A stretch of DNA of 64,000 bases. Source: an uncultured Verrucomicrobiota bacterium (GTDB lineage Bacteria; Verrucomicrobiota; Verrucomicrobiia; Limisphaerales; J093). The stretch is from assembly GCA_964411985.1 (NCBI GenBank), contig CAYPNF010000005.1, positions 108,974-172,973 of the forward strand. Reading direction: 5' to 3'. Below are positions 5,669-26,321 of this stretch, one piece after another. How positions within the stretch are numbered: the first letter of the stretch is position 1; the number at the start of each line of letters is the position of its first letter. The notes under the pieces are model-generated. The model searched no databases. It was not told where the DNA came from and saw only the letters and a list, made by a program, of their open reading frames with translations. The translations under genes were made by a program, and so were the position numbers.

Positions 5669-5680
5669 CTGTTTTGGACT

Positions 5681-5710
5681 GCCCGAGGGGCACAACGAGG
5701 CTCCTCGGGC
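5681..5710 (+). terminator. GC-rich hairpin just after the stop of the giant protein gene (8-bp stem gcccgagg/cctcgggc); no U-tract, so a weak or non-canonical terminator
   Basis: Inverted repeat read directly: gcccgagg ggcacaacgaggct cctcgggc. Confidence 0.2.
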
Positions 5711-5803
5711 GGCCCTGCCTGCGTGCCGTCCGCTTGAGGCGCTCGAGACTTGCGCCTATTTAGAAAGCGATCGCTTATGGACCATTCTTTCCCATTTCCT
5801 GGC

Positions 5804-6625: not shown

Positions 6626-6696
6626 AGTGTTCTATCATCAGGATACCTTACTGTGAAGGGATAAAAGAGAGTCACACAAGTTGAAAGGCAGCGTGA

Positions 6697-7293: not shown

Positions 7294-7302
7294 AGTGTTA
7301 CC

Positions 7303-10016: not shown

Positions 10017-10017
10017 A

Positions 10018-11965: not shown

Positions 11966-13225
11966 ATGAGCAGCATCCTCACGATCCGTAAATACACATT
12001 GGGTGTGGGCGATCGCTTTGCGCAGCAAGCCGTTGCGCAAATTCAAGCTTGCGTCATGGCAGCGCAACAGGGTGTGGAAATCTGTCCCACGTGGAACAAA
12101 TCCAATCGCGAACACGACATCATTGGCTCCGAGCCGGCGAGCGTGCGGGCAGCGGCCGACGCGGCGGTGAAGGCCGCCGGATGGATGAAGCCGTACTACG
12201 TGGATGCTGATCACATCGGGCTCAGGACGGTGGATCGTTTCATGGCGGTTTCCGACTTTTTCACCATTGATGTCGCGGACTATATCGGCAAGTCCGCCGA
12301 AACCAGCGCGGGGAGGGCTTTCGTTGAGCGCCATCCCGAACTGATGGGCAGGGTTTCTATCGCGGGGATCGATTGCCCCTTTGATGTTACGCGCGCCGAA
12401 GTGGAGCGCATCGCGGGCAAGTATTTGCACGCCGTGCAGGAAGCCAGCAAGGTGTATCAATACATCTCGTCGAAGAAGAACGGCGCGTCTTTTGTCACGG
12501 AAGTGTCGATGGACGAAACCGATTCTCCGCAGACGCCGCTGGAGCTACTCTGCATCCTTGCGGCGATGGCCGAAGAGAAGATTCCAATTCAGACCATCGC
12601 GCCGAAGTTCACTGGCCGGTTCAACAAGGGCGTGGATTACGTGGGTGACGTGGCGCAGTTCGAGAAGGAAGTCAACGACGACCTGTGTGTCATTTCACAC
12701 GCCATCCAACGCTACGGCCTGCCGGAAACGCTCAAGCTCAGCGTGCACTCAGGCAGCGATAAGTTCTCGATCTATCCGGCCATCAACCGTGCTTTGAAGA
12801 AGCACGGCTGCGGGGTCCACGTGAAGACGGCAGGTACGACTTGGCTGGAGGAAGTCATCGGGCTCGCCGAGCACGGCGGGGAGGGGTTGAAGCTGGCGAA
12901 GGAAATCTACGCCGGGGCACTGGCGTGCATAGACGAACTTAGCGTACCCTATGCCAGCGTACTTGACATCAAACGCCCGAACCTCCCGACGGCGGAAGAG
13001 GTGAGCAGATGGACGAGTGAACAGTATGTCAGAGCCTTGCGCCACGACCAGATGGACCCTCTGTTCAACGAGAGCCTCCGCCAGTTGCTGCACGTGGGCT
13101 ATAAGGTCGCCGCGAAGATGGGGCCGCGGTATCTTATGCTGCTCGAGGAATGTGAAACCTCGGTGGCACGCAACGTGACGAGTAATCTGTTTGACCGCCA
13201 CATCAAACCCTTGTTTTTGTCTTAA
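11966..13225 (+). CDS. Conserved putative sugar-acid enzyme, possibly UxaE-like (tagaturonate/fructuronate epimerase family); function uncertain
   Basis: 419-aa soluble protein in the operon. Motifs such as SVHSGSDKFS and HVKTAGTTWLE; the UxaE assignment rests on recalled similarity only. Confidence 0.5.
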   Translation: MSSILTIRKYTLGVGDRFAQQAVAQIQACVMAAQQGVEICPTWNKSNREHDIIGSEPASVRAAADAAVKAAGWMKPYYVDADHIGLRTVDRFMAVSDFFTIDVADYIGKSAETSAGRAFVERHPELMGRVSIAGIDCPFDVTRAEVERIAGKYLHAVQEASKVYQYISSKKNGASFVTEVSMDETDSPQTPLELLCILAAMAEEKIPIQTIAPKFTGRFNKGVDYVGDVAQFEKEVNDDLCVISHAIQRYGLPETLKLSVHSGSDKFSIYPAINRALKKHGCGVHVKTAGTTWLEEVIGLAEHGGEGLKLAKEIYAGALACIDELSVPYASVLDIKRPNLPTAEEVSRWTSEQYVRALRHDQMDPLFNESLRQLLHVGYKVAAKMGPRYLMLLEECETSVARNVTSNLFDRHIKPLFLS

Positions 13226-13236
13226 GCAAACCACCC

Positions 13237-16035
13237 ATGTTGTTTCATAACATTACCTTCGTTACGGCCGTAGCCACCATCATCATGGCCCACGCCTTCG
13301 CTCATGCGGCAAGCGATTCGAGAACAAACTCTCTCGGCATGATGATGATTCCAGTGAAATCGGGGAGCTTCGTCATGGGCTCCACGACGATAGATGAACA
13401 TTGGAATGAGCGCCCGGCGCATCGGGTGACGATCAGCCACGGCTTCCTCATGTCGGAGACTGAAGTGACGCTGGCACAGTATCAGCAGTTTCGCCCCGGG
13501 TTTGAGGGCACTCCGGGCTGTGATCCTTACGTGGCCGGGGTCAGTTGGCTGGATGCCACGGCCTTTTGCGAGTGGCTGAGCCACAAGGAAGGAAAGCCTT
13601 ATCGGCTGCCGACCGAGGCCGAGTGGGAATTTGCCTGCCGAGCAGGCACGGTGACTCCGTTTCACACAGGCGCTCAACCGACGGCGCTCGAGACTGCCAA
13701 CGCCTGGGGATTCAAGAACATGCACACCGGCGTGCGAGAATGGTGTTTTGACCGCTACGGCGAATACCCCATCGAGGCGCAGATTGACCCGGCCGGAGCG
13801 GATCAAGGAATTACGCGCGTAGTTCGCGGCGGGGGCATGGACGAGAACCAACCTGAATACGCCCGCTCAACCGCGCGCGGCTCGATGGGTGAGGCTTTTG
13901 GCGCTTATGCGCCGGGAATAGTGGAGGGAAAGCGACTGAGCTTGGCGGAGACTTTCTTTCCAGGTATGGTGGGCCGCTTTTTTGGCGAAGCAAACCTTAC
14001 CCGGCCGCATGACAAGTTCCTGATCCACAAACTCGACCTTAGCAAGAAGGATGGTGAGTTCGACAAGGGTAGCCAGTGGTCCGGCCGCTTTCTCGGTTTC
14101 TTAGAGGCGCCGGTTACCGGCTCGGTCGCTTTCGAAGGGATTGCCGACGACGGCATGGAAGTCCTCGTGGAGGGCAAGAAGATCATTAGCGCCTGGAACC
14201 AGAAGAACACACCCGTGGCCGGCACAGTGGACATGGTGAAAGGCCGCAAGTACGAGGTCGAAATCACGTTCACCCAGAACGGAGGCGATGCGTTCATGCG
14301 CCTTTATTGGAGCTGGCTCGGGCAGGACAAGCAAATCGTTCCGTCGTCGGCGATGTCCTACAGCGGTCTTCAGGAAATGAAAGTTGTGGCCATGGGCACC
14401 GGTGCAACCTCTGAAGTCCCCGGCCATCACCTGATCGGTTTCCGCGTGGTCCAAGGGGCTCCGGCGAAGCGCTTTCTGCGCACCGATGGTCCTTACGCTC
14501 GTCAAGGCGTACGGCAGGATACTAGCATGGCCAAGCAGGGGCCGGATCCGGCCAAGCCCTACTTCCGCAAACGCTCCATGATGCCGACCCCGCTCGAAAA
14601 CAGTGACCGTAAAGTCATCGACTTTGCGGGTCTGCATGCTTCGTTCCGCGACCACAACCACAGCCCGGCACTGGAGGTGTTGCCCAACGGTGACGTGCTG
14701 CTTGTGATCTATACATCCTATCACGAATATGAACCAGGCGTGTCACTAATCGCGGCACGGTTACGCTTCGGCACCGAGGAATGGGATATGCCAAGCCCGT
14801 GGTTGGATTTCGCCCTGGTGAACGACCACGCTCCACTTTTGTGGGTTGAAAGCGGAATCCTGCGGCTCTTCTGGGGCAATCCACGGCTCGCTTCTGCGTT
14901 CCCCTTCCAATGGGTGGAATCCACCGACAACGGAGGGACGCTTGGGCCGGTGTGCTTCCCGAGATTCACGAGCCGCATTGGCCCTCATTCCAAGCAACCC
15001 ATCAACACCGCTTTCCGGGGTTTGGACGGCACGATGTATGTTGCGAGCGACGCCGCGGGAGCTTCCTCTGTTTTGTGGGCGAGCGGCGATAACGGCAAGA
15101 CCTGGTACGACACCGGGGGGCGAAGCGCAGGTCGCCATACCACTTATGCAGTGCTCAAGGATGGTTCGATTCTGGGCATGGGAGGCAAGAACAGCGACAT
15201 TCAGGGCTACATGCCCAAGGTTGTTTCCAAAGACGGCGGTAAGACGTGGGAGAAGAGCAAGACCCCCTTTGCGGCACAGTCCTCCAACCAGCGGCCGAGC
15301 CTGCTCCGCCTCACCAGCGGGCGACTGTTCTTCGCAGGCGACTACCAAGATCGGGAAGGAAAGCAGCCTGATGGCATCAAGGATCGGGGCTCCTATGTCG
15401 CCCTCTCGGACGACGATGGTCAAACCTGGAGGATCAAGCCCTTACTAGGCGCGCAGCCGCACGAGGATGGCAAACTGGCCTCGGCGACCATTGGGTATTC
15501 GGCTGCGCGGCAGGCACCCAACGGCGTCATCCACCTGATCACGACGATGAACCGTCCTAATCTGCACTTCGAAATGAACGAGGCATGGATCCTAGATCCG
15601 AACAGCACACGCGAAGACCCGGTGGCTCCGACCTCCAGCGGTCCACTGATCAATGTCAGTAAGCATACGGAGAAGTATCCTACCGGGCAGACAAGGCTAA
15701 CTTGGAGCGCGGGTAGAGCCTCTGATGGCCGATGCCTTTTGGAGGGTGCTGAGATCTGGTACCATGACAACGGCCGAAAGCAGCGCGAGGCCAAGTACAA
15801 GAAGGGCTTCAAGACAGGAAAGGAGACGTACTGGTCGCGCGACGGCAGGGTCGAATGGACTTGGGATCACCGGCCTGACGGCAGCGCGGTCTGGACACAA
15901 TTCTGGTCCAACGGCCAGAAGAAGGCTGTATCAACCTGGCGGAGTTTCATGTGCGATGGCACGGCGACCTGCTGGGATCCGTCCGGCAAGCAGATCAGCC
16001 AAGTGGAGTTTTCCCGAGGTAGGATCAGGAAATGA
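13237..16035 (+). CDS. Secreted multi-domain protein: formylglycine-generating-enzyme (SUMF1/FGE-sulfatase) domain + PA14 + BNR/Asp-box sialidase-like beta-propeller + C-terminal MORN/YwqK-like repeats
   Basis: N-terminal signal peptide. FGE-like region RLPTEAEWEFACRAGTVTPFHTG...WGFKNMHTGVREW. PA14 region GSVAFEGIADDGMEVLVEGKKIISAW...FMRLYWS. Asp-boxes SGDNGKTW, SKDGGKTW, SDDDGQTW. Repeats WYHDNGRKQREAKYKKG / YWSRDGRVEWTW. Confidence 0.75.
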   Translation: MLFHNITFVTAVATIIMAHAFAHAASDSRTNSLGMMMIPVKSGSFVMGSTTIDEHWNERPAHRVTISHGFLMSETEVTLAQYQQFRPGFEGTPGCDPYVAGVSWLDATAFCEWLSHKEGKPYRLPTEAEWEFACRAGTVTPFHTGAQPTALETANAWGFKNMHTGVREWCFDRYGEYPIEAQIDPAGADQGITRVVRGGGMDENQPEYARSTARGSMGEAFGAYAPGIVEGKRLSLAETFFPGMVGRFFGEANLTRPHDKFLIHKLDLSKKDGEFDKGSQWSGRFLGFLEAPVTGSVAFEGIADDGMEVLVEGKKIISAWNQKNTPVAGTVDMVKGRKYEVEITFTQNGGDAFMRLYWSWLGQDKQIVPSSAMSYSGLQEMKVVAMGTGATSEVPGHHLIGFRVVQGAPAKRFLRTDGPYARQGVRQDTSMAKQGPDPAKPYFRKRSMMPTPLENSDRKVIDFAGLHASFRDHNHSPALEVLPNGDVLLVIYTSYHEYEPGVSLIAARLRFGTEEWDMPSPWLDFALVNDHAPLLWVESGILRLFWGNPRLASAFPFQWVESTDNGGTLGPVCFPRFTSRIGPHSKQPINTAFRGLDGTMYVASDAAGASSVLWASGDNGKTWYDTGGRSAGRHTTYAVLKDGSILGMGGKNSDIQGYMPKVVSKDGGKTWEKSKTPFAAQSSNQRPSLLRLTSGRLFFAGDYQDREGKQPDGIKDRGSYVALSDDDGQTWRIKPLLGAQPHEDGKLASATIGYSAARQAPNGVIHLITTMNRPNLHFEMNEAWILDPNSTREDPVAPTSSGPLINVSKHTEKYPTGQTRLTWSAGRASDGRCLLEGAEIWYHDNGRKQREAKYKKGFKTGKETYWSRDGRVEWTWDHRPDGSAVWTQFWSNGQKKAVSTWRSFMCDGTATCWDPSGKQISQVEFSRGRIRK

Positions 16036-16232
16036 TCGGCGTCATCGTAAACGATTTGACCGGGGCCGCGGCGCTCGCGCGGCAAATGGGCTGGCATCGG
16101 CTGGAGGTGACGGCCGAACTCACGCCGGGTGTGGTCACGCTTTCAATGCCCGGGGAGATCCCCGTCTTGTTCACCATGAAGCCTGGGACATACGAATGGC
16201 TAGAGAGCGTCACACGGTTGCGTCCTCGTTGA
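16032..16232 (+). CDS. Small hypothetical protein (66 aa), translationally coupled to the preceding gene
   Basis: ATGA start/stop overlap at 16032-16035. No recognisable motif; could be spurious. Confidence 0.3.
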   Translation: MIGVIVNDLTGAAALARQMGWHRLEVTAELTPGVVTLSMPGEIPVLFTMKPGTYEWLESVTRLRPR

Positions 16233-16251
16233 AACGAATAACAAGAAACCC

Positions 16252-18210
16252 ATGAAACAACTACGTCACTCAACGCCGCGCTGTACCAATTTCTTGGTGT
16301 CCTTGTCAGCGTTGTGCCTTGTGCTTCTCGTCGCCGCGCGTGGCGAGCAACGCGTTATGCCTGCGTCGATTGCGGAGTCTGCCTCCGAACCAGTCCGCTA
16401 TGTTGGGAACGAGCAGACCGACAAACGGTCTTACGACGGTGCGCTTCGCCACGCCGTTGGTGTCCATTATCACCAGGCGCTGCGCGCCAATCGCACCTGC
16501 CCGACGGAAGGTGGCTCCCTCGGCTGGACTTACAATCACCAGCCCTATTTGGCTTACTGGCATGATCGGTTCTATCTCCAATACCTCAGCACGCCAAAGG
16601 AGGAGCACGTCCCCCCCGGTCGCACACTACTGATGGTCTCCACGAACGGCCAACATTGGTCCAATCCCCGTGTGGTCTTTCCGGAGTATTCCTTGCCGGA
16701 GATCAAGACCGCCGATGGCTGTCTGCCGGCAGGGGCGTTGGCTGTGATGCACCAACGAATGGGCTTTTATGTGGCGCCCAACGGGCGGCTACTTACCTTG
16801 GGCTTTTACAGTTACTGCATTGACCCACTTCCCCAAAAAGGTCCAAACAAGGGGCAGGGATTAGGCCGCGTCGTCCGCGAGATTCGCACCGACAACACAC
16901 TTGGCCCCATCTTCTTCATCCGTTACAACCGGCACGCAGGCTGGAGCGAAACCAACACCAGCTATCCGTTCTACAGGACCAGTCCTGACGCCGGCTTCGT
17001 GCAAGCTTGCGACGCGTTGCTCGCGGACAAGCTGATGACCCTTCAATGGTGGGAGGAGGATCGGGCTACCGACGGCTTCTACACCCTTCAACTGGACAAA
17101 GCCGAACCGAAGGCCTTGAGCTACGTCCACCGCCCGGATGGAACTGTGCTCGGCGTCTGGAAAGCGCACTACGCACTCAGTTCCGATGAGGGTAATTCGT
17201 GGACCAGGCTCGTGGGCGCTCCGACCTTGATGCCTTGTGGCGCTAAGACGTGGGTCCAACGGACCGAAGATGGGCGATATGCGCTTGTCTATAATCACTC
17301 GCTCACGCGCAACAATCGTTTTCCGCTGGTGGTGATGACGAGCGATGATTGCCGGGACTTCACCAACATGCTTTGTCTGCATGGGGAAGTCCCGCCCCGG
17401 CGCTTTGCCGGGCTGTACAAGAACGCTGGTCCGCAATACGTCCGGGGCATCGAGGAAGGCAACGGCAAACCGCCCGGCTCATACCTTTGGAACACCTACA
17501 GCATGAACAAGGAGGATATTTGGGTCAGCCGCACGCGTGTGCCGGTTACGGGAGCGGTTTCACAGCACACTCAGGAGACTTTCGACGACGTGGGGTCGGT
17601 GGCCCAGCTGGAACAGTGGAATCTGTATGAGCCGCAGTGGGCTCCGATTGGCATCGTCAACGACCCGCATCGGCCCGGAAACAAGTGCCTCGAATTGCGC
17701 GACGAGGATCCTTACGACTATGCGCTAGCGGAACGCGCGATTCCCGAAAGCTCGAGGGTCCGGATCGAGTTCCGCGTATTCGCGGAGAAGGTCGCTCACG
17801 GGGTGCTGGAAGTGGAAATACAGGACCGGTATGGCCACCGCCCGCTCAAGTTGCGACTGGATGACAAGTGGCTGGGTCAGGACCAGATGACCCGCTGGGT
17901 TAACGCGATTCCGGTCCCGGAGCGCAGCTGGCTGACAATTCGGCTGGACATCAACTGCGCTCAAGGAAGCTACGACCTTGCATTGAACGGAAAGACCGTC
18001 GGGCTTGGGGTAAAGTTTGCCGAGCAGGCCGAAACCGTCGAGCGCGTGATCTTCCGCACCGGTCCGTATCGCGGCGACGTGCGGGCCATTTTCGTGGAGG
18101 GTGAGCATGCCACCCTGGGCTATACGAGCGAAGACCTGCCAGGTGCGGACCAGCGCGTGCCTCTGAGTGTGTATATGGTTGATGACTTGCGCACTAGCCC
18201 AGTGCAATAA
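16252..18210 (+). CDS. Secreted BNR/Asp-box sialidase-like beta-propeller protein with C-terminal LamG/concanavalin-like domain (paralog 1 of 3)
   Basis: Signal peptide. Shared family blocks PVRYVGNEQTDKRSYDGALRHAVGV, MGFYVAPNGRLL, LMTLQWWEEDRA, GPQYVRGIEEGNGKPPGSYLWNTYSMNKEDIWVS. Asp-box SSDEGNSWT. The same blocks recur in the 19200 and 24480 genes. Confidence 0.8.
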   Translation: MKQLRHSTPRCTNFLVSLSALCLVLLVAARGEQRVMPASIAESASEPVRYVGNEQTDKRSYDGALRHAVGVHYHQALRANRTCPTEGGSLGWTYNHQPYLAYWHDRFYLQYLSTPKEEHVPPGRTLLMVSTNGQHWSNPRVVFPEYSLPEIKTADGCLPAGALAVMHQRMGFYVAPNGRLLTLGFYSYCIDPLPQKGPNKGQGLGRVVREIRTDNTLGPIFFIRYNRHAGWSETNTSYPFYRTSPDAGFVQACDALLADKLMTLQWWEEDRATDGFYTLQLDKAEPKALSYVHRPDGTVLGVWKAHYALSSDEGNSWTRLVGAPTLMPCGAKTWVQRTEDGRYALVYNHSLTRNNRFPLVVMTSDDCRDFTNMLCLHGEVPPRRFAGLYKNAGPQYVRGIEEGNGKPPGSYLWNTYSMNKEDIWVSRTRVPVTGAVSQHTQETFDDVGSVAQLEQWNLYEPQWAPIGIVNDPHRPGNKCLELRDEDPYDYALAERAIPESSRVRIEFRVFAEKVAHGVLEVEIQDRYGHRPLKLRLDDKWLGQDQMTRWVNAIPVPERSWLTIRLDINCAQGSYDLALNGKTVGLGVKFAEQAETVERVIFRTGPYRGDVRAIFVEGEHATLGYTSEDLPGADQRVPLSVYMVDDLRTSPVQ

Positions 18211-18294
18211 CGCGACCCCCTCCAGTTCCAGCGCAACAGGTTTATCATCAAACATCCAACCACGTCCAACTAACCGAGTTACTAACCTCTCGCC

Positions 18295-19170
18295 ATGATC
18301 TGCCGTTACTACCAAAATGGCCAGCAACTGGATGTTGCCGGACTCAACGTTGTCACCGTACTCGTTGACCGTGGTGAAACCCAGCTCACCGAGGTCGGCT
18401 GGAACCGTTGGCGTCAGGGATTAGAAGGGCCACCTCACAACCATGAAGCGAAGGAGCAAATCTTCTACGTTACTGATGGTGAAGGCATAGTATTGGTCGG
18501 GCCAGCCCGTTACTCCGTCCAGCCCGGCAGCTTGATTTATGTGCCGCCGAAGGTCGTCCATCAGACGATCGTGACCGGAGACGCCCCGCTAAGCTATATC
18601 CTATTTAACGCGTTTCTTGACGTCACCAAGGAAGGGCAAGCGTCGTATGCGGAGCACATCGAGAAGGTCAAAGAGGTCCGGCGCCTGCAGGCGCACTTCC
18701 GGCGAGCGGCCGTGGCGGGCGCCGACGCGAGCGGCGTTTCCGATCAACCTGGCAAACATGTCGAGGACATTCACCAGGGCAGGGTGTTTGACTTTGGTTC
18801 AAACACTTCGACTTTGCTCATGGAGCGGAATGAAACCCAGCGTTGCGAAGTCACGCTGGTGACCTGGCCCAAGGGAAACAAGGGCGCTATGGTCGCGCAC
18901 AAAGAGAAGGAACAAACGTTCTTCGTGGTGTCGGGCCGCGGGCAAGTGACGATTGGCACGGAGACCTGCGACGTGGGCGTGGGCGATGTCATCTTCGTTC
19001 CGTGGAACACGCCTCACACCACCGCGGCCCCCGATGTGGAATTAAGCTACCTCTGCTTCAACACCCTCGTCATCGAGCCGCCCGACAAAAGCTTTGCCGA
19101 TTCATACCAACGGGTTGCAAGTGGACGTATTGCCCGGTGGAAATCCGGCGATACAACGGTGGGCGAGTAG
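18295..19170 (+). CDS. Bicupin protein (two cupin_2 domains)
   Basis: PHNHEAKEQIFYVTDGEGIV...YVPPKVVH, and a second module AHKEKEQTFFVVSGRGQV...IFVPWNTPH. 291 aa. Confidence 0.75.
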   Translation: MICRYYQNGQQLDVAGLNVVTVLVDRGETQLTEVGWNRWRQGLEGPPHNHEAKEQIFYVTDGEGIVLVGPARYSVQPGSLIYVPPKVVHQTIVTGDAPLSYILFNAFLDVTKEGQASYAEHIEKVKEVRRLQAHFRRAAVAGADASGVSDQPGKHVEDIHQGRVFDFGSNTSTLLMERNETQRCEVTLVTWPKGNKGAMVAHKEKEQTFFVVSGRGQVTIGTETCDVGVGDVIFVPWNTPHTTAAPDVELSYLCFNTLVIEPPDKSFADSYQRVASGRIARWKSGDTTVGE

Positions 19171-19199
19171 CCTGTGAGGGTCCCCTCTGGACTAACGCT

Positions 19200-20249
19200 T
19201 TGAACATCCTATTCTACTTCGTACAGCCAAGAGCGAGAACACGCATTGTTTCGCTGCTGCTTGCCGTGGCTGGGCTGACGGATGTCTGCGCTCAGACCCC
19301 CGGTACCGCCGCCGAGCCCGTGCGCTACATTGGCACTGAGCAGGCCGATACCACGCACGATGGTGGTCTGCGCTGGGCCATCGGCGTAAAGAGCTGGCAG
19401 GCCTTTCGCGCCAACCGCGCCCACCCCGAACTGGCCGAGGGTTTCGGCTGGACCTACAACCATGCGCCCATGCTCGCCTATTGGCGCGACCGCTTCTGGA
19501 TCGAATACCTCAGTGCGGCCAAGGATGAAAACCGCGGACCGATGCACACGCTGCTCATGTCCTCCGCCGACGGCATCCACTGGGACAAACCGTGTGTGGT
19601 CTTTCCCCAATACACGACGCCCGACGGCAAGATTGCCCAGGTGCATCAGCGCATGGGTTTCTATGTCGCGCCCGATGGCCGGTTGCTCGTGCTCGGTTTC
19701 TACGGCCCCGAACGAAGCCCCAACGAGGGCGGCGGCATTGGACGAACCGTGCGCGAAGTATATGCCGATGGCAATCTCAGCCCGATGTACTTCATTCGCT
19801 ACAGCCTGCACAACGGCTGGAATGAGCGGAACACTTCCTTTCCCTCCTATACCAACTCCCCCGACGCAGGATTCAAACGCGCGTGCGAAGCGTTGCTGGC
19901 CAACAAGCTCATGACCCTTCAATGGTGGGAGGAAGATCGAGCCAAGGACGGCTTCTACCCCGACTTGGGTGAGCAAGTGCTCAAGGCGCTTTCGTTTTAT
20001 CATCGCAAGGATGGTGCGGTGGTCGCCCTTTGGAAAAACTCGTGGACCGCGCTTTCGACCGACGAAGGGCGTACGTGGAGCCGCCCGGTCCAAGCGCCCT
20101 CGCTGGTCATGGCATCGGCCAAAGTCTGGGGGCAGCGCACGTCGCCGACCTTGCGCGATCCCAAATCGCCCGGCGAGGATTTCCCCAATGCCGATCAGCC
20201 CATGCCCGAGGCGATCTTCTGCATTGATGACGTGTCGGTGAGCGAGTAG
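19200..20249 (+). CDS. BNR/sialidase-like propeller protein, paralog 2 of 3; lacks the C-terminal LamG-like domain; only plausible start is TTG, so possibly decaying
   Basis: Clear homology to 16252..18210 over ~320 aa (AEPVRYIGTEQADTTHDGGLRWAIGV, MGFYVAPDGRLL, LMTLQWWEEDRA). The first in-frame start after the cupin stop is TTG at 19200, giving the signal-like MNILFYFVQPRARTRIVSLLLAVAGLTDVCA. ORF tool start 18843 overlaps the cupin gene by 327 nt. Confidence 0.55.
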   Translation: MNILFYFVQPRARTRIVSLLLAVAGLTDVCAQTPGTAAEPVRYIGTEQADTTHDGGLRWAIGVKSWQAFRANRAHPELAEGFGWTYNHAPMLAYWRDRFWIEYLSAAKDENRGPMHTLLMSSADGIHWDKPCVVFPQYTTPDGKIAQVHQRMGFYVAPDGRLLVLGFYGPERSPNEGGGIGRTVREVYADGNLSPMYFIRYSLHNGWNERNTSFPSYTNSPDAGFKRACEALLANKLMTLQWWEEDRAKDGFYPDLGEQVLKALSFYHRKDGAVVALWKNSWTALSTDEGRTWSRPVQAPSLVMASAKVWGQRTSPTLRDPKSPGEDFPNADQPMPEAIFCIDDVSVSE

Positions 20250-20269
20250 CACAAAGGAGTAGCGCATCT

Positions 20270-21538
20270 ATGAGTATGAAACGCACAACGATCTTCCGGT
20301 TGATCTCTTGGCTGGCTTGCCGCTTGCCGGTGACACCGGCACTGACCAACACCAAGCTTCTTCTGCTGGTCAGTCTTGTATTCGCCATCGCCATCAGCGG
20401 CTGCAAACACCCTCCAGCCGGCCATGGAGCCCAGCCGATGAAGGATGTCGTCGTCGCCAGCGAAGTCGGCAAGTTTTGCGGCTGGCCGGCCAACAACGGC
20501 CTTTGGCGCTGGGACAACGGCCGGGAGATCCTGGTGGGGTTCTCCTTCGGGGATTTCGTCGAACAGCAGGGCCACAACCTCAAGGGCGGGAGCGATGCCA
20601 CGTTGGGCGTCGTGAGCCGCCTGGCGCGCAGTCGAGACGGCGGCCTGACCTGGACGGTCGAGGATCCGGACAGGTTCGTCGGAGACGGGGGCGTGGCGGC
20701 AGATTCCCCTGGTGGATTCGACTTTCAGGCCCCGGGCTTCGCCCTGCGAGTCGTGGGCGTGGGCTATCACGGGTCCCAGGACCCGGCAGGTTCACTTTTC
20801 GTCTCCGGCGACCGGGGGCGGACCTGGCGGGGCCCCTACCGGTTCGGCGCGCTCATGAAGGATGCCAACCTTCAGGGGATGGCCTTGACCGCCCGCACGC
20901 GCTATTTGGCGACCGGCCCGGGTTCCTGCCTGCTGTTCATGTCGGCGCGCCCCAGTGCCAGCGTCCCGGGACAGATTGCGACGGACAAGAGCTTCGTGGC
21001 TGAGACGACCGACGGAGGGCGAAGCTTCCACTTCGTCTCTTGGGTCGTGCCGCTCCAGGATCCTTATCGGGCGGTGATGCCGGCGGTGGGACGACTGGCC
21101 GACGGAACGATCCTCGCTGTGCTCCGCCGTCGCGACGTTGCCGACAATCATGCCCCGTGCTGGGTGGATTGTTATGCTTCGCGGGACAACGGACGCTCGT
21201 GGAGCTTCTCGAGCCTGGTAGGCCAGACCGGCGCAGAAAACGGAAATCCGCCGGCGCTAACGGTGCTCCAGGACGGGCGGGTGGTTTGCGCCTATGGCGA
21301 CCGCTCGTGCGATAAACTCTTCGCCCGGGTAAGCGCTGACGGAGGCACATCGTGGGGTGAGGAGATTGTGCTGCGCGAGGATTTTCAACCGGACAGATTT
21401 GGCGACCATGATTTTGGATATCCCCAGTTGACTACGAATGAACGGGGTGAGGTGGTTACCCTATATTACTGGGCCACAAAGGAACTGACGCAGCAGCACA
21501 TTGCTGCGACGATTTGGAAACCGGGCATTCGTCACTGA
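20270..21538 (+). CDS. BNR/Asp-box repeat lipoprotein (exo-alpha-sialidase-like beta-propeller)
   Basis: Lipobox-like AISGC. Five Asp-boxes: SRDGGLTW, SGDRGRTW, TTDGGRSF, SRDNGRSW, SADGGTSW. Confidence 0.8.
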   Translation: MSMKRTTIFRLISWLACRLPVTPALTNTKLLLLVSLVFAIAISGCKHPPAGHGAQPMKDVVVASEVGKFCGWPANNGLWRWDNGREILVGFSFGDFVEQQGHNLKGGSDATLGVVSRLARSRDGGLTWTVEDPDRFVGDGGVAADSPGGFDFQAPGFALRVVGVGYHGSQDPAGSLFVSGDRGRTWRGPYRFGALMKDANLQGMALTARTRYLATGPGSCLLFMSARPSASVPGQIATDKSFVAETTDGGRSFHFVSWVVPLQDPYRAVMPAVGRLADGTILAVLRRRDVADNHAPCWVDCYASRDNGRSWSFSSLVGQTGAENGNPPALTVLQDGRVVCAYGDRSCDKLFARVSADGGTSWGEEIVLREDFQPDRFGDHDFGYPQLTTNERGEVVTLYYWATKELTQQHIAATIWKPGIRH

Positions 21539-21541
21539 GCC

Positions 21542-24370
21542 GTGCGCCAAACCAGTCCAACCATGAGTACACCCTGTAAAGACGCGAAGAGTATGACAGC
21601 GTGGTTTCTGCCTACCCAGGCTGCGGGACTGTTATGCCTGGCGCTGGCGATTGAAGTGAGCGCAGTGGCTGCGGAACCGGACGGGGTGCGCCGGGTGTAC
21701 TCCCATTTGCTCGAGCCGAGCGAGCATCCGGATTACGGCCGTCGGACGGTGAAGCCGCCGACGTGGGTGACTTTCAAGAACCGCACCCAATTCACCTGCC
21801 TGCGCGGGTTCGCTACTAAGGACGGACAGTTGGTTGGCTTTGCTGAAGAGCTGGAGAAGTTCACGCGGACACACGAGCTGGGCGACGTCATCTGGCCTTC
21901 CTACGAAGTGCTGTTCGCGAAGAACCTCGGAGAGGTGGCCGATGAGATTAAGCGCCGTGACCTTTACCTCTTCGACATCTGGGGCTATGTGCCGGGGTCA
22001 GGTCCGGGCGGCTATTGGCAGCAGTTCACCCCGCCCGCAGGCGCGTTGGCCACTCTCGAATCCACCCTCGGCGAACACTGGTTGGGCACGGACATCGGCG
22101 AACAGGATGGCCGCTACATTGGTGGTTATGCGGATCAGATGACGCCCGCCTCGGCCAGTCGCTTCGAGCAATACCTGAATTTCCAGCGTCACTTCGAAAA
22201 GATGGGTGACGATCTCGGTCACAAGCACGCGACCTTGGTATCGCTGAATTTCGGCCATTACTTCCTGAAGGAGGGAACTTACACGCTCATCGGCGCTGAG
22301 ACGGCCCAAGCCTTGCCGAACAACCAGGTCTATTACGCGTTCATCCGCGGTGCTGGGAAACAATACGGCGTGCCGTGGTTTGGCAACGCCTCTCTCTTCA
22401 ATCGCTGGGGCTACAAGACCTACGGCTCAGCGGGCGGCAGTGGTGGCGATACACACAGCCCGACCCACGGCACGAGCCTGAGCCTAATGAAGCGCTTGCT
22501 CTACTCTCACATTCTTTACAACTGCGTCGCGGTCGGTTTCGAGAACGGGTGGTTTGAAGGCGAAAAGCTCTCACCCATTGGTCGGATTCAGCAGGCCGCC
22601 CAGCGCTGGGTCAAGGAGAATGGTCAACCCGGCGTCATGCACACCCCAGTGGCGCTGCTTCTCGATTTCTATTCCGGTTGGACATTTCCGCGTCATCTTT
22701 ACTGGGCTGATGTCTACCGCGTTTGGGGCAACTTGCCTTACGAGCCGGGCGATTATCTGACCGACGTGGTGCTTGACGCCCTCTATCCCGGCTATCAGAA
22801 CTCGTCGTACTTCCACGATGAATCCGCTTTCATCGCCCCGACCCCTTACGGTGACCTAGCGGATTGCCTGCTGAGCGACGCTCCACTGTGGGTGTTAGAG
22901 CGCTACCCGGTCGTGATCGTGGCCGGTGAACTCCGAGGCAGCCGCGAGGTGCGCGACAAACTTCAGTCCTACGTTGAGCGCGGCGGGCACGTGGTCATCA
23001 CGGCGGGCAATCTCGCCAAACTCCCCGGCGGTTTGGCCGGACGAACCGAAGCGGTCAACGCGACAGTCTCGTGCGGCCGGGGGCAAGTGACTCTCTTTGC
23101 CAGTCCGTTCGGCGTGAAACCCCAACAGCTGCCGGAGCAGCTGCTGCGCAGCGAAATAGACAAGCCGTTGCCGAAGCCATATGCACTCGAACCCGACGTC
23201 CGGAGACGGCTGGAGCAAATCTTCCGATCGCAGCAACTCTTCCAGTTACACGGCGAAGGGCTGAGCCTCATCACCTGCCGCAGGCAGGCCGGCGAATACA
23301 CCATCGGCATCGCGAACAACACCTGGCGAGAACAGCCGTTTCGTCTCGAGTCGCTCTGCGGCGAGATAGAGTCGTTCCGCGAGTTGCCGCTGGACCAATC
23401 AGAGAAAGGGGCGATCGGGCAAACCCCCATCGGTGTCGACGCCACGCAGTTGGGTGCGGGCGGCGAGGGTAAGATCGCCGGCGGGGATGTGAGCATTTTC
23501 GCGGTTAAGGTGAAGGAAACTGGCCTTGAGGAAATTCAGCACGTTACGCCACCGCCGCGTCCTCATGATTGCTTCCTCACCCTGCGGCACGCAAGTTCGA
23601 TCAAGGAGGAAATCCTGGCACGGCCCACGTTTTTCGAGCATTTCGACGGCGTGTGCGTGGACTGGAGGGTTTTGCACGAGCGCGAGCGGGCGACGCTGCA
23701 GAAAGAAGCCCGCTGGCTCAAACGGCAGGCCGTGCGCATCATTGTGGATTTTAGTTCCGGCTTGAATCTATACCCAACGCTCCGGTTGCTCAACAACGTG
23801 CCTGCCGATTACGAAGCCAGTATGATGGTCTGGACTGATGTGCTGGCGAAGATGGAAATCCTGGGTGCGAAGGACGTTATCTTCTCGCTGCACCGGAATC
23901 CTGAAAACAACTTCACCGGTGAGCAGGAGAATGCGGGCTATTGGAGCACGCTGAAGAACCTGGCCGGGCAGGCTGCGGCGCTCGGAGTCACGCTGCATCT
24001 GCGCGTTGGGGCGGGAAAGCCGCCGCGGAACTTTCCCGAAGCCTTTCATTACCTCGAGCCCGTGAACGCGCCCAACCTGAAGCTGGCCGTGGAGACAGCG
24101 ATGCTGGACGGGCAACCCATCGACAGTGAGTTACTTGCTCGCCTGAAGGGCCGTGTCGGGATATGGCTTGTCGCCGCACAGAAAACCGACATCGGCGGCA
24201 AGGTGTGGGACAACCATGCCGCGCTCCAATCCCTGCGGGATCGCAAAGCCGTTGCCCAATGGCTGGCCACTTCTCCGGGTGCGCCGAAAATTCTCGACGG
24301 GGTGTACGCAAGCCAAGACGACGAGTATCTGGACGTGCTCATCTTGGACCGGATGCTGAAGGAACAATGA
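21542..24370 (+). CDS. Large secreted fusion protein: glycoside-hydrolase-like TIM barrel with GH42-type GATase1-like trimerisation domain + C-terminal sugar-phosphate isomerase/epimerase (xylose-isomerase-like TIM) domain; function unknown
   Basis: Probable signal peptide at the internal Met (MTAWFLPTQAAGLLCLALAIEVSAVAA). The motif PVVIVAGELRGSREVRDKLQSYVERGGHVVITAGN resembles the beta-galactosidase trimerisation domain. The C-terminal 300 aa (RIIVDFSSGLNLYP...VTLHLRVGAG) resemble the AP-endonuclease-2 / sugar phosphate isomerase family. Confidence 0.65.
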   Translation: MRQTSPTMSTPCKDAKSMTAWFLPTQAAGLLCLALAIEVSAVAAEPDGVRRVYSHLLEPSEHPDYGRRTVKPPTWVTFKNRTQFTCLRGFATKDGQLVGFAEELEKFTRTHELGDVIWPSYEVLFAKNLGEVADEIKRRDLYLFDIWGYVPGSGPGGYWQQFTPPAGALATLESTLGEHWLGTDIGEQDGRYIGGYADQMTPASASRFEQYLNFQRHFEKMGDDLGHKHATLVSLNFGHYFLKEGTYTLIGAETAQALPNNQVYYAFIRGAGKQYGVPWFGNASLFNRWGYKTYGSAGGSGGDTHSPTHGTSLSLMKRLLYSHILYNCVAVGFENGWFEGEKLSPIGRIQQAAQRWVKENGQPGVMHTPVALLLDFYSGWTFPRHLYWADVYRVWGNLPYEPGDYLTDVVLDALYPGYQNSSYFHDESAFIAPTPYGDLADCLLSDAPLWVLERYPVVIVAGELRGSREVRDKLQSYVERGGHVVITAGNLAKLPGGLAGRTEAVNATVSCGRGQVTLFASPFGVKPQQLPEQLLRSEIDKPLPKPYALEPDVRRRLEQIFRSQQLFQLHGEGLSLITCRRQAGEYTIGIANNTWREQPFRLESLCGEIESFRELPLDQSEKGAIGQTPIGVDATQLGAGGEGKIAGGDVSIFAVKVKETGLEEIQHVTPPPRPHDCFLTLRHASSIKEEILARPTFFEHFDGVCVDWRVLHERERATLQKEARWLKRQAVRIIVDFSSGLNLYPTLRLLNNVPADYEASMMVWTDVLAKMEILGAKDVIFSLHRNPENNFTGEQENAGYWSTLKNLAGQAAALGVTLHLRVGAGKPPRNFPEAFHYLEPVNAPNLKLAVETAMLDGQPIDSELLARLKGRVGIWLVAAQKTDIGGKVWDNHAALQSLRDRKAVAQWLATSPGAPKILDGVYASQDDEYLDVLILDRMLKEQ

Positions 24371-24479
24371 CGGTGGAAAGCGCACCGTGGCGGCACCAAA
24401 TGATCTCCAACGCTGGGAAATGGTGACGCTGCGAGCGGAATTGTGAGAGTGGACCTATGACGGGCAAAAGTAAGAACTT

Positions 24480-26321
24480 ATGAAGACCATTCCTTCTTCA
24501 AGACACCTGAAACGGTGTTTCTTTCTCGGACAGAAAGCTGGACTTTTATGCCTGGCGCTTGCAGCTAGCGCTGCACCAGCCCAACCGCTAACCTACACGG
24601 GCGGCATTTATGGGGATGCCCTTTCTGCCCATGACGGGAAGTTGCGCTGGGCGGTTGGTGTCCAGAATGTCCAGGTATCCCGATCGGCTCCGGACAATCC
24701 GGGTGCGACGGATGGCAGCACAACCCTATACCGCCATCATCAGATGATCGCCTACTGGGGCGGGCGATTCTGGTCGTTCCACTCCGGGGGTGTTCAATTG
24801 TGCTGGTCTACAAACGGTTTGGATTGGTATCCCGGCGCGGATTCCTCCAATGTCATTCATGGCGGCGCTTCGAGAATGGCCTTCTATGTCGCTCCGAACG
24901 GTCGGTTCCTCGTCAGTCAGGCGAACGCAGGACGTTCCGGCGGGCCGGGCGAGAGGTTGGTCAGGGAAATCCTGGGACCGAAGTCCTACGGACCCGAGAC
25001 CTACAATGTGAAGACCAACTTCGCAGGGCCGCTCGCGCGAATGGCTCCCTACTACACGAGTTCGAGCGATGCTGGCTTCAGGGCTGCCTGTGAAGCACTG
25101 CTCGGTGACCCCCTTTTCTGCCAGCAATGGCAGGAGGAGGACCAGGATCCCAACTTCTACACCATCAGCACCGAGACCCTTCCCCGAGTGCGTGAATGGA
25201 AGGCATTTAATTGGTATCGGCTCGCTGACAACCGGATTGTGGGGGCTTGGAAAAAGCACTACATGGCTGTGAGCACTGGAACAAACTGGACCAGGGACAT
25301 GGTTCCCGCTCCCGCCGAGGTGACATCGTTTGGCTTCAATCCCAGCGCCAAGGTGTGGGGGACACGCACGAAGGATGGTCGCTATGCGTTTGTAGGGTGC
25401 ACGCCTGGAAGACCCGGTGGTGATTTGCACCGGCGATGGCCATTGGCAGTGACCACATCGGGAGACGGCTTGAAGTTCGACACCCCTTACCTGGTGATTG
25501 CCGGGGATATGCCCCCGCAGCGCTATGAGAATGCCGCCGGTGATGATAAGAACTCCGGGCCCCAGTATGTTCGTGGTATCTGCCCGGGGAATGGGGACCC
25601 GCCCGGGAGAGACCTCTGGCTGACCTACAGCATGAACAAGGAAGATATCTGGGTGGCCTGCGTGCCCACACCCATCTTGGGACAGGTGACCAATGAGGTG
25701 CGCGAGGACTTCCAGGCCCAACCGCTAGGACACCGCATCGAGGGCTGGAATACCTACAGCCCTCAGTGGGCTCCGGTGACGATTGCTGCTGAAGGCACAA
25801 ACTGCTTCCTGCAGCTCGAGGATCGCGATCCCTGCGACTATGCCAGCGCGATGCGCATTTTCCGACAGAGCCCTTCGGCGCGTCTGGCTTTCCAAATCCG
25901 GGCGCACGAGGCAAATGCCCGCAGCGCGCCTTTGGAGATTGATGTGGTCTCTGGCGACGGCACCCGCGCCGTGGCACTCTCCTTCAACCCGACGAACAGT
26001 CACCTTATGGCCTGGAATGGTGGCATGCGGCAGAACGTGAAGGCCTACACCACGAACCGTTGGATCAGCGTGGAGCTGGCTGTGGATGCTGGTAGCCAGT
26101 TCTATTCCCTCAAGGTGGACGGCAGCCCGGTGCTCACCAACGCATCGTTTCTTGAAGCCGCCAGCAGTGTTGAGCGCATCGTGTTTCGCACAGGCGAGTT
26201 TCGGTTGCGCGATTTTACGCGGCGTCCCCAGGTGGATGGAACCTGGCTGACGAACCGCATTCCAAATGCTGATGTGTTGCAGCCGACCAGCCGCTATGAC
26301 TTGGACGATGTCGCACTTTAG
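24480..26321 (+). CDS. Secreted BNR/sialidase-like propeller protein with C-terminal LamG-like domain (paralog 3 of 3)
   Basis: Signal peptide with the same GLLCLALA core as the 21542 gene. Family blocks GPQYVRGICPGNGDPPGRDLWLTYSMNKEDIWVA and WNTYSPQWAPV. C-terminal domain (VERIVFRTGEF) collinear with paralog 1. Confidence 0.8.
   Translation: MKTIPSSRHLKRCFFLGQKAGLLCLALAASAAPAQPLTYTGGIYGDALSAHDGKLRWAVGVQNVQVSRSAPDNPGATDGSTTLYRHHQMIAYWGGRFWSFHSGGVQLCWSTNGLDWYPGADSSNVIHGGASRMAFYVAPNGRFLVSQANAGRSGGPGERLVREILGPKSYGPETYNVKTNFAGPLARMAPYYTSSSDAGFRAACEALLGDPLFCQQWQEEDQDPNFYTISTETLPRVREWKAFNWYRLADNRIVGAWKKHYMAVSTGTNWTRDMVPAPAEVTSFGFNPSAKVWGTRTKDGRYAFVGCTPGRPGGDLHRRWPLAVTTSGDGLKFDTPYLVIAGDMPPQRYENAAGDDKNSGPQYVRGICPGNGDPPGRDLWLTYSMNKEDIWVACVPTPILGQVTNEVREDFQAQPLGHRIEGWNTYSPQWAPVTIAAEGTNCFLQLEDRDPCDYASAMRIFRQSPSARLAFQIRAHEANARSAPLEIDVVSGDGTRAVALSFNPTNSHLMAWNGGMRQNVKAYTTNRWISVELAVDAGSQFYSLKVDGSPVLTNASFLEAASSVERIVFRTGEFRLRDFTRRPQVDGTWLTNRIPNADVLQPTSRYDLDDVAL

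Follow-up and report, generated by a model that had tools for sequence, protein, structure and literature searches.

Secreted GH143-family propellers as the probable extracellular front end of a conserved sugar-acid operon in an uncultured Verrucomicrobiota bacterium

Downstream of genes for acidic-sugar catabolism, a 64,000-nucleotide stretch of DNA from an uncultured Verrucomicrobiota bacterium (the window) encodes three secreted, mutually related propeller proteins, which raises the question of what they act on and whether they belong with the upstream genes. The initial annotation had seen in them a triplicated, uncharacterised sialidase-like family, an interpretation that is partly supported by the present analysis. 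It had placed P1 at 16252..18210, P2 at 19200..20249 and P3 at 24480..26321, and the open reading frames were found at exactly these coordinates, all on the + strand. Pairwise BLASTP of the translations showed that they are clearly homologous, with 52.6% identity over 331 aa for P1 and P2 (E 2e-110), 34.3% over 627 aa for P1 and P3 (E 7e-87) and 35% over 278 aa for P2 and P3 (E 2e-33). Long identical blocks are indeed shared, but each by two of the three only and not, as described before, by all: GPQYVRGI...NKEDIWV is present in P1 and P3, the corresponding region being gone from P2, and LMTLQWWEEDRA is common to P1 and P2, with LFCQQWQEEDQD in its place in P3.

P1 has a signal peptide followed by a sialidase-like propeller and a beta-sandwich, and P3 is likewise secreted, with propeller and beta-sandwich. 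All three proteins match Pfam PF24067 (BT_1020-like propeller; E 5e-99 for P1), and P1 and P3 also match PF22585 (E 6e-31 for P1). Residues 41-650 of P1 aligned with PDB entry 5MQR (BT1020) at E 9e-136 and 40% identity, end to end, over the GH143 module plus beta-sandwich; the region of BT1020 concerned, residues 21-611, also aligned with P3 (E 1.5e-73). A family profile found the BT1020 structure in the PDB with E 5e-181. The family is not uncharacterised but corresponds to CAZy GH143/Pfam PF24067; for BT1020, its founding member, a crystal structure is available and hydrolysis of Dha has been described. Judged from their sequences, P1 and P3 are secreted GH143 members with a six-bladed sialidase-like propeller followed by a beta-sandwich. 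Dha is a rare acidic sugar of plant pectin, which the founding member of GH143 clips off. In BT1020 of Bacteroides thetaiotaomicron the N-terminus is the GH143 DHA-hydrolase (PMC13501991), and the enzyme is described in the literature as removing side chain D of RG-II. BT1020 is the sole characterised GH143 enzyme and is 34-42% identical to the copies in the window, so that their specificity could differ.

The three genes do not go back to the local expansion initially assumed. They represent three lineages (a, b and c for P1, P2 and P3) with mutual identities of only 34-53%, and related genomes contain a separate ortholog of each (79-84% identity for lineage a, 83% for b and 82-85% for c). 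The triplication is thus old, and P1, P2 and P3 are, on this evidence, three old paralog lineages that travel together in related Verrucomicrobiota.

For 100 family sequences from many phyla, invariant residues (P1 numbering) were R78, Y94, H96, R169, R209-E210, D296, K304, K332, D340, R356, D366, R384, Y396, R398, N404, W413 and K420-E421-D422. P1 and P3 retain the full set, and the conserved catalytic-type residues on which the initial annotation had made its reading depend are present in both (approximately 20 invariant polar residues). Beside the invariant R132, P3 shows lineage-specific changes, with ASR where the family has HQR, which predicts a different specificity for this protein. 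As these and other P3 changes are also found in its orthologs, they are conserved variants rather than signs of decay. P1 is predicted to be an exo-hydrolase for Dha-type 2-keto-3-deoxy sugar acids. The earlier proposal of enzymes acting on acidic 2-keto-3-deoxy sugars is plausible.

Several catabolic genes precede P1, all on the + strand. A YhcH/DUF386 protein (6697..7293; Pfam PF04074, E 5e-22) is encoded at an equivalent position in the relatives L002-L004; YhcH of E. coli is an anomerase supplying open-chain sugar to Neu5Ac aldolase (PMC8141875). It is followed by a sodium:solute symporter (SSF; 7303..8874; PF00474, E 5e-43), homologs of which adjoin GH143 in 17 of 84 loci, and by an iron-containing alcohol dehydrogenase (Fe-ADH; 8871..10016; Pfam Fe-ADH and ADH_Fe_C), with orthologs 77-87% identical in L001, L003 and L005 and colinear in clusters of other phyla. 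The class I pyruvate aldolase of the DHDPS/NanA superfamily (10000..10926; PF00701, E 1e-51) scored below both the DapA and the NanA equivalog cut-offs, and its PDB matches comprise DHDPS, Neu5Ac lyases and KDG-type aldolases. For the PdxA-family dehydrogenase (10923..11942; Pfam PdxA, E 4e-100), HMM scores do not separate PdxA from PdxA2: TIGR00557 gave 352 bits, above its cut-off, and NF002891 (D-threonate 4-phosphate dehydrogenase) 300 bits, below its cut-off of 583. From the gene context we read it as a catabolic PdxA2-like enzyme. A UxaE-like gene of the tagaturonate/fructuronate epimerase family (11966..13225; PF16257, E 1e-53; PDB 6IL9, E 5e-28) was seen in the window only, without a homolog in the 84 related loci. 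In relatives, the PdxA-family gene is followed by an intact DUF1537 kinase (PF07005 and PF17042). In the window, this four-carbon acid-sugar kinase is a 66-codon in-frame remnant (16032..16232), in which residues 1-13 are joined in frame to the last ~53 and ~315 codons are missing. Using the kinases of L003 and L005, tblastn gave matches solely at 16032-16070 (85%, N-terminus MIGVIVNDLTGAA) and 16065-16229 (60-63%, C-terminus).

Further proteins are encoded next to or between the paralogs, again on the + strand. A secreted 932-aa protein with FGE-sulfatase, PA14, BNR_2 propeller and MORN domains (13237..16035; Pfam, BNR_2 39.4 bits) has full-length homologs (41-78% identity) adjoining GH143 in nine loci, among them Bacteroidaceae, Ignavibacteriales, Calditrichota and Acidobacteriota. 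The gene at 18295..19170 had correctly been called a bicupin: its product has two Cupin_2 domains (Pfam), no signal peptide and weak PDB matches only. It usually lies directly 3′ of GH143, with homologs (41-89% identical) adjoining GH143 in 11 loci. A 422-aa lipoprotein with a BNR_2 (sialidase/GH93-like) propeller (20270..21538; 46.5 bits, E 4e-12; lipobox AISGC) shows weak PDB matches to sialidases and GH93 arabinanases; with homologs in 16 loci it is a conserved cluster member and possibly a second exo-glycosidase. Together with P1, the partial P2, P3 and the 932-aa protein, it brings the number of BNR-type propellers from 13237 to 26321 to five, where four or five had been counted within 13 kb. 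The 942-aa secreted protein at 21542..24370 belongs to a conserved Limisphaerales family and is an inconstant cluster member. Its earlier description as a GH-like fusion has no sequence match in Pfam or PDB to support it, but in a model of moderate quality the N-terminal and middle portions look like GH164/GH42 and the C-terminus like a xylose-isomerase-like TIM barrel.

All genes from 1847 to 27532 lie on the same strand, with gaps of 4-237 bp within the 16252-26321 region, and the cluster is also found in L001-L005. The order FeADH-DHDPS-PdxA-DUF1537-SSF-(BNR2)-GH143-bicupin is colinear in Bacteroidaceae, Bacteroidales, Ignavibacteriales, Calditrichota, Acidobacteriota and Cyclobacteriaceae, and the colinear cluster thus spans at least four phyla. 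The same-strand run and the gene order kept across phyla support the initial annotation in linking the propellers functionally with the acid-sugar operon upstream. Probably, P1 and P3 are exo-hydrolases liberating a terminal 2-keto-3-deoxy sugar acid and constitute the first, extracellular stage of a conserved sugar-acid operon.

Family membership, the deletions in P2 and the kinase gene and the conserved synteny are established by the sequences; for the substrates and every catalytic step we infer the following scheme. Outside the cell, P1 and P3 would attack an acidic glycan and free its terminal 2-keto-3-deoxy sugar acid, the SSF symporter would import this sugar acid and YhcH would open its ring in an anomerase step. 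The DHDPS/NanA-type aldolase would split Dha into pyruvate and a C4 aldehyde-acid, which Fe-ADH would convert to D-threonate. By hand derivation from the D-lyxo configuration, aldol cleavage of Dha between C3 and C4 gives a threo C4 aldehyde-acid, whose reduction yields D-threonate. In relatives, D-threonate would be phosphorylated by the DUF1537 kinase, and the PdxA2-like dehydrogenase would take the product to DHAP and CO2. The D-threonate kinase DtnK belongs to DUF1537 (PMC10971088), and PdxA2 paralogs work in organic-acid catabolism (PMC9997740). Since the kinase is an in-frame deletion remnant here, this last branch is probably either broken in the window or supplied by genes that lie elsewhere in the genome. 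The gene content of the cluster fits a previously undescribed route from Dha to pyruvate and, via D-threonate, to DHAP.

With respect to the glycan, it is possible, at somewhat less than even odds, that the target is not pectin but sulfated Kdo/Dha glycans of algae, with the three GH143 lineages specialised for different 2-keto sugar acids. RG-II is unsulfated. Two Bacteroidota clusters, L062 and L034, have a sulfatase gene directly upstream of FeADH; sulfatases at least 50% identical to this one adjoin GH143 in L029, L039, L015, L013, L017 and L042, 20 of 85 loci have some sulfatase no more than 10 kb away, L001 likewise has one, and the protein with the FGE-sulfatase domain is conserved in the cluster. 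Sulfated polysaccharides of Kdo, 5-O-Me-Kdo, Dha and GalA occur in the walls of prasinophytes (PMC3355719). The hosts are aquatic or sediment MAGs of Verrucomicrobiota, Planctomycetota and Bacteroidota, and the conserved substitutions peculiar to lineage c are adjacent to the pocket. Moreover, Pfam searches of the window found neither GH142 or another beta-L-arabinofuranosidase to uncap RG-II Dha nor other RG-II enzyme families. On the other hand, no sulfatase is encoded in the 64-kb window, FGE-like domains are also met outside sulfatase contexts, as in GldK and EgtB, and the documented GH143 activity is Dha hydrolysis only. No gene of the operon is an obvious candidate for processing the D-arabinose that Kdo cleavage would yield, and such algal polymers are without known enzymology.

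That the genes are plain BT1020 counterparts serving to degrade side chain D (Araf-beta-1,5-Dha) of plant RG-II, the remaining RG-II apparatus being encoded elsewhere, seems rather unlikely. It would agree with the sole characterised homolog being an RG-II Dha-hydrolase, with a GH78 rhamnosidase adjoining GH143a in L001 and with the reported wide distribution of GH143 in RG-II-degrading soil and endophytic bacteria. However, P1 stops where the GH142 of BT1020 starts, and no GH142 is fused or adjoining; the many other RG-II families are missing from the window, sulfatases recur in sister clusters and a single linkage would not need three diverged paralogs.

P2, the lineage b copy, had been suspected of degenerating, and this is borne out by an in-frame internal deletion of 813 bp (271 codons), mapped at the DNA and protein level, with its junction at 20136-20141 in a 6-bp microhomology (CGCACG). 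Residues 38-314 of P2 correspond to 77-353 of GH143b from L003 (83%) and residues 313-349 to 623-659 (84%). The deletion took about half of the family-invariant residues (13 or more), including all from D340 onward, together with about one third of the propeller, at its end, and almost all of the beta-sandwich, in agreement with the C-terminal domain noted before as missing. As noted, a TTG, at 19200, is the only start available ahead of the signal peptide, and no Shine-Dalgarno-like sequence precedes it. Most likely, P2 is an inactive, non-functional remnant. A functional short protein, e.g. one whose partial propeller serves in binding or regulation, is improbable, even though the deletion is in frame and leaves signal peptide, start and stop intact. 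Unique substitutions in the retained part (12 versus 12; among the conserved columns only one is altered, G to S) indicate no accelerated change, so that a residual role is possible. Against it stand the residues and domains lost and the start without Shine-Dalgarno sequence; in addition, lineage b is full length in L001 and L003 but entirely lost in the nearest genome, L005, and no identical product was found in a collection of 15 billion proteins. The second in-frame deletion in the operon, that of the kinase, suggests a shared mutational or selective cause, not design.

Very improbably, the propellers bind glycans without catalysis, as lectins or surface binding proteins: the beta-sandwich carries a CBM annotation, but the whole catalytic module is homologous to an active enzyme, 100 sequences drawn from many phyla all keep approximately 20 Arg, Asp, Glu, Tyr, His and Lys residues, and linkage to a monosaccharide catabolic operon is tight. 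The least credible reading, true GH33-like sialidases/KDNases with a nan-type sialic acid pathway upstream, could draw on YhcH, the SSF transporter and the NanA-superfamily aldolase as in nan loci, but, consistent with the GH33 signature initially reported as lacking, BNR_2 reached 26 bits against a cut-off of 31.4, a PDB search with the GH143 family profile returned no sialidase, GH33 enzymes are only 8-15% identical, P1, P2 and P3 have no RIP motif, and NanK, NanE and NagA/B are replaced by Fe-ADH, PdxA and DUF1537, which make no sense for ManNAc.

The preferred reading, GH143 exo-hydrolases serving a sugar-acid operon, can be compared with four known systems. BT1020 (PDB 5MQR/5MQS), from an RG-II utilisation locus, has 1108 aa and a C-terminal GH142 beta-L-arabinofuranosidase, whereas P1 and P3 are stand-alone proteins of 613-652 aa without this part; they lie in a Verrucomicrobiota operon with three diverged paralogs and catabolic genes, not in a Bacteroides Sus-type PUL, and the HQR residues changed to ASR in lineage c are otherwise near-invariant, BT1020 included. 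The GH33 exo-sialidases and KDNases (human Neu2 1SNT, Micromonospora 1EUR, Aspergillus KDNase 4M4N) show no detectable sequence relationship to the window proteins. With the E. coli-type sialic acid module, the window has in common that SSF transporter, YhcH/DUF386 and NanA/DHDPS-superfamily aldolase are encoded together, but its aldolase lies below the NanA cut-off, and Fe-ADH, PdxA and DUF1537 characterise this cluster type where that module has NanK, NanE and NagA/B. Finally, a D-threonate catabolic pair of DtnK (a DUF1537 kinase) and PdxA2 was reportedly described by Zhang et al. in PNAS in 2016. The relatives resemble it in having the PF07005/PF17042 kinase directly after the PdxA-family gene; the window differs in that its kinase is down to 66 codons and its PdxA2 equivalog score is under the cut-off. 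In the cluster, moreover, the pair stands behind an aldolase and an alcohol dehydrogenase and adjoins a glycosidase, an arrangement that implies D-threonate derived from a C7 sugar diacid.

Three open reading frames proposed in the initial annotation are present on the plus strand, at 16252–18210 (P1, 652 aa), 19200–20249 (P2, 349 aa from a TTG start) and 24480–26321 (P3, 613 aa), and all three products carry signal peptides. All-versus-all BLASTP confirmed that they are paralogs, with 52.6% identity between P1 and P2 over 331 aa, 34.3% between P1 and P3 over 627 aa and 35% between P2 and P3 over 278 aa. The long identical blocks described earlier are real, but each is common to two copies only and not to three. 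Scores against the Pfam family PF24067 ('BT_1020-like N-terminal beta propeller'; gathering cut-off 27 bits) were 331 bits for P1 (E = 5e-99), 306 bits for P2 (E = 2e-91) and 96 bits for P3 (E = 3e-27). Residues 41–650 of P1 aligned with residues 21–611 of BT1020 from Bacteroides thetaiotaomicron (PDB 5MQR/5MQS) with an E-value of 9e-136; the corresponding values were 1.5e-73 for P3 and 5e-181 for a GH143 family profile, while P2 could be aligned in its first ~315 residues only. A C-terminal beta-sandwich (PF22585) follows the propeller in P1 and P3, in the same order as in BT1020, and is missing from P2, which agrees with the LamG/concanavalin-like domain previously assigned to copies 1 and 3. 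The N-terminal part of BT1020 is the founding GH143 enzyme, a Dha-hydrolase acting on side chain D of the pectin RG-II, and its C-terminal part is a GH142 beta-L-arabinofuranosidase (PMC13501991; bioRxiv 10.64898/2026.03.13.711244). Whole-module similarity, PF24067 score, domain order and, in P1 and P3, the invariant polar residues show that the three proteins are new members of the known family GH143 and not the uncharacterised family they had been taken for. From these similarities, Dha-hydrolase activity is predicted for P1 and P3. The family is large, with more than 4900 matches scored in a 90%-identity protein collection, ~560 matching clusters at 50% identity and at least 597 loci among species-representative genomes of many phyla. 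Because the proteins belong to GH143, discovery of a family is in itself immaterial, and the genomic context is more useful.

The suspicion of a sialidase-like propeller was right at the level of fold, since the GH143 propellers of the window have the six-bladed sialidase architecture. In agreement with the reported lack of a GH33 signature, neither a BNR_2/GH33 profile match above cut-off nor a RIP motif with Arg triad was found: BNR_2 scored 26 bits on P1, under the cut-off of 31.4, and did not match P3; the translations of P1, P2 and P3 contain no RIP motif. The GH143 profile retrieved no sialidase from 177,635 PDB sequences at E ≤ 10, the only matches being 5MQR and a chance GH32 hit.

Invariance was judged on an alignment of 100 GH143 sequences, in which ~20 polar residues, the putative active site, are invariant. 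Every 100%-invariant residue is kept in P1 and P3, so that the catalytic-type residues on which an enzymatic reading had been made to depend are there, and both proteins look functional as judged by their sequences. P3 departs at several positions where conservation elsewhere is 93% or higher, most clearly at H167–Q168 just before the invariant R169 (HQR to ASR). The orthologs of P3 in two other genomes (L005 and L006) have the same fixed deviations, and in the corresponding copies of loci L001 and L003 a different variant, HHR, is fixed. As the deviations are fixed in orthologs and the invariant residues are kept, the pattern points to a change in specificity and not to decay.

The same trio of GH143 copies also occurs on L001 (ENA ERZ25039503) and on L002–L004 (a Verrucomicrobiota MAG, GCA_029558835.1). 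Judged by its neighbours, at 82–88% identity, the source organism probably belongs to Verrucomicrobia subdivision 3 / Limisphaerales. P1 is 79–84% identical to its orthologs (lineage a), P2 83% to its ortholog (lineage b) and P3 82–85% to the copies in L005 and L006 (lineage c), compared with 34–53% identity between lineages; BT1020 is 34–42% identical to all three. The local expansion proposed earlier is ruled out, as every copy resembles its ortholog in another genome far more than it resembles the neighbouring copies, and by this comparison the trio is an old, maintained paralog set. Within lineage c, P3 shares 62–64% identity with the copies of L001 (11962–13866) and L003 (13981–15873); the L005 copy lies at 14223–15950. 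Two c sub-lineages can be distinguished by the residues before the invariant Arg, ASR versus HHR, while in lineage a the identity is similar throughout (79–84%). With a single characterised member in the family, the three conserved lineages lend themselves to defining what determines specificity.

Comparison with the full-length lineage-b protein of L003 identifies P2 as a remnant left by a deletion. Its residues 38–314 correspond to residues 77–353 of that protein and its residues 313–349 to residues 623–659. The two blocks join at 20136–20141 in a 6-bp microhomology (CGCACG), and the loss, 813 bp or 271 codons at the DNA level, is in frame. In the 100-sequence alignment P2 lacks D340, R356, D366, R384, Y396, R398, N404, W413, K420, E421 and D422 (P1 numbering). 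Its sole usable start is the TTG, without a Shine–Dalgarno-like sequence, and its product is absent from a collection of 15 billion proteins that contains those of its neighbours. These findings bear out the view of P2 as a degenerating gene. A relative-rate test for relaxed constraint in the retained part was negative (12 versus 12 lineage-specific substitutions); this part has not yet degraded, and the deletion is thus recent. L005, which is the nearest species-representative genome, has no lineage-b copy at all. In L003, the full-length lineage-b gene opens with a signal peptide plus a fragment from the N-terminus of a sulfatase (PDVLLIISDDQHWGDYGFMGHP; 11970–12200), fused ahead of the propeller; this stretch also matches the sulfatase gene of L001 (18001–18321) and has the appearance of a further scar left by deletion or fusion.

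A second in-frame deletion was found at 16032–16232, where a 66-codon ORF consists of residues 1–13 of a DUF1537 kinase fused to its last ~53 residues, with a loss of ~315 codons at GC-rich microhomology. The window therefore holds no intact DUF1537 kinase (PF07005 + PF17042) adjoining PdxA; such a gene directly follows PdxA in L002–L005 and lies beside it in L062 and eight other loci. The chance that both deletions of the operon are in frame is ~1 in 9, and selection against polar effects may be the reason. The window's copy of the cluster is damaged. Displacement of the kinase by insertion of the neighbouring FGE/PA14/BNR gene was rejected, as that gene is conserved as part of the cluster and the kinase was lost through a separate internal deletion.

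All genes from 1847 to 27532 lie on the plus strand, with short gaps in the GH143 region. Upstream of it are genes for a giant Ig-repeat protein, a DUF1559 prepilin-like protein, YhcH/DUF386, an SSF symporter, an iron-containing alcohol dehydrogenase (Fe-ADH), an aldolase of the DHDPS/NanA superfamily and a PdxA-family dehydrogenase. A scan of 13–28 kb gave one promoter-like site (3.9 expected) and 16 terminator-like sites (13.7 expected). Using tblastn on 84 loci, we found a colinear block of Fe-ADH, DHDPS, PdxA, DUF1537, SSF, (BNR2), GH143, bicupin and (FGE/PA14/BNR) in Bacteroidaceae, Bacteroidales, Ignavibacteriales, Calditrichota, Acidobacteriota and Cyclobacteriaceae. The case for joint action of GH143 and the catabolic genes rests mainly on the retention of this gene order across phyla, which also supports the link to the upstream acidic-sugar operon. 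Of the initial interpretation, the sialidase-like glycosidases for acidic keto-sugars, the degenerating P2 and the operon link stand, while the new family does not.

The four or five BNR propellers counted before amount to five BNR-type propellers within 13237–26321, together with the bicupin (18295–19170) and a 942-aa secreted protein (orf942, 21542–24370). The BNR_2 lipoprotein (20270–21538), with weak matches to sialidases and GH93 arabinanases, and the bicupin, with weak cupin matches, are conserved GH143 partners. The gene at 13237–16035 encodes a 932-aa protein with an FGE-sulfatase (formylglycine-generating-enzyme-like) domain, PA14, a BNR_2 propeller and MORN repeats, and nine loci of several phyla have a full-length homolog alongside GH143. 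Between PdxA and this gene is a UxaE-like gene of the tagaturonate/fructuronate epimerase family (11966–13225; PDB 6IL9, E = 5e-28), for which the 84 related loci provide no homolog and which may be a recent acquisition. At these positions, it and orf942 occur only in the window or very close strains. The resemblance of orf942 to GH164/GH42 is weak evidence because its N-terminal domain models poorly (pLDDT < 50 at residues 220–310 and 374–446). The GH143 proteins, the BNR lipoprotein, orf942 and the UxaE-like protein are not represented by any NCBIfam model.

At the head of the operon (913–6625), a divergent AraC-family regulator (913–1839, minus strand) is followed by the 1273-aa Ig-repeat protein (He_PIG/Big_9/Cadherin/fn3) and the DUF1559 prepilin-type protein; the latter two are conserved at the same position in L002–L004 and may form a surface capture apparatus. 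Near the trio, gene order differs from one close relative to the next. The window also encodes a member of the GH38 alpha-mannosidase family, 7 kb further downstream (33677–37204); in the very close strain L085 a GH38 gene stands immediately between the bicupin and the homolog of orf942 (4866–8186), indicating rapid rearrangement of the region among strains. Between 44000 and 50000, G+C falls from ~0.60 to 0.52–0.55, and a 513-aa ORF without Pfam match (47959–49500) is followed by a GT2 glycosyltransferase; this segment may be foreign.

The colinear cluster provides a complete hypothesis for Dha catabolism with consistent stereochemistry. Secreted GH143 would free a terminal 2-keto-3-deoxy sugar acid, the SSF transporter would import it and YhcH would open its ring, a reaction demonstrated for Neu5Ac with the E. 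coli protein (PMC8141875). The class I aldolase would then cut Dha (D-lyxo at C4–C6) between C3 and C4 to pyruvate and threo 2,3-dihydroxy-4-oxobutanoate, which, as derived from Fischer projections, Fe-ADH would reduce to D-threonate. The DUF1537 kinase would form 4-phospho-D-threonate, and a PdxA2-like enzyme would convert this to DHAP and CO2, the net products from Dha being pyruvate, DHAP and CO2. Zhang and co-workers reportedly showed in 2016 that PdxA2 turns D-threonate 4-phosphate into DHAP and CO2. The D-threonate kinase DtnK belongs to DUF1537 (PMC10971088). The aldolase (PF00701, 175.8 bits) did not reach the cut-off of any of the models for DapA, NanA, KDG-aldolase or KdgD and is thus a superfamily member of undefined specificity. 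The window PdxA reached 352.6 bits with TIGR00557 pdxA (cut-off 290) and 299.7 bits with NF002891 D-threonate-4-P dehydrogenase (cut-off 583); PdxA and PdxA2 paralogs are hard to separate, the latter being catabolic (PMC9997740). For Kdo or sialic acids this enzyme set would not be needed. No catabolic route for Dha was found in the searchable literature.

As to the source of the sugar acid, sulfated algal 2-keto-sugar-acid polymers are an attractive alternative to plant RG-II. A sulfatase (PF00884 + SGSH_C) lies directly upstream of Fe-ADH in the sister clusters L062 (1199–2617) and L034 (2639–4069), a related one is located beside GH143 in six further loci (L029, L039, L015, L013, L017 and L042), and some sulfatase occurs within 10 kb of GH143 in 20 of 85 loci and near it in L001. 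Such recurrence beside the GH143/catabolic block in several phyla points to a sulfated substrate, and the conserved 932-aa protein carries an FGE-sulfatase domain. On the other hand, the 64-kb window contains no sulfatase. The activity of the GH143 founder points to RG-II, but the window lacks GH142 and any other RG-II family, and the sulfatases of the sister clusters likewise speak against this source. We know of no described enzymes for degradation of sulfated algal 2-keto-sugar-acid polymers. It is conceivable, if rather doubtful, that the multi-phylum cluster, often with a sulfatase, is an undescribed utilisation system for the rare sugar diacid Dha (pyruvate plus D-threonate, the latter converted to DHAP), that green-algal scales and thecae, with their sulfated Kdo/5-O-Me-Kdo/Dha polysaccharides, supply its natural substrate and that the three GH143 lineages divide the 2-keto sugar acids among them. 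If true, the biology of GH143 would reach beyond pectin breakdown in the gut to carbon turnover in aquatic habitats. The predicted Dha route and the possible sulfated algal substrate are the more novel content and are unproven.

Compared with known systems, the GH143 proteins of the window share their fold with GH33 sialidases but no link at the sequence level. BT1020 continues into a C-terminal GH142 module, whereas the window proteins end where GH142 would start. The kinase and PdxA pair of the DtnK/PdxA2 D-threonate pathway is whole in the relatives, while the window keeps only the kinase remnant.
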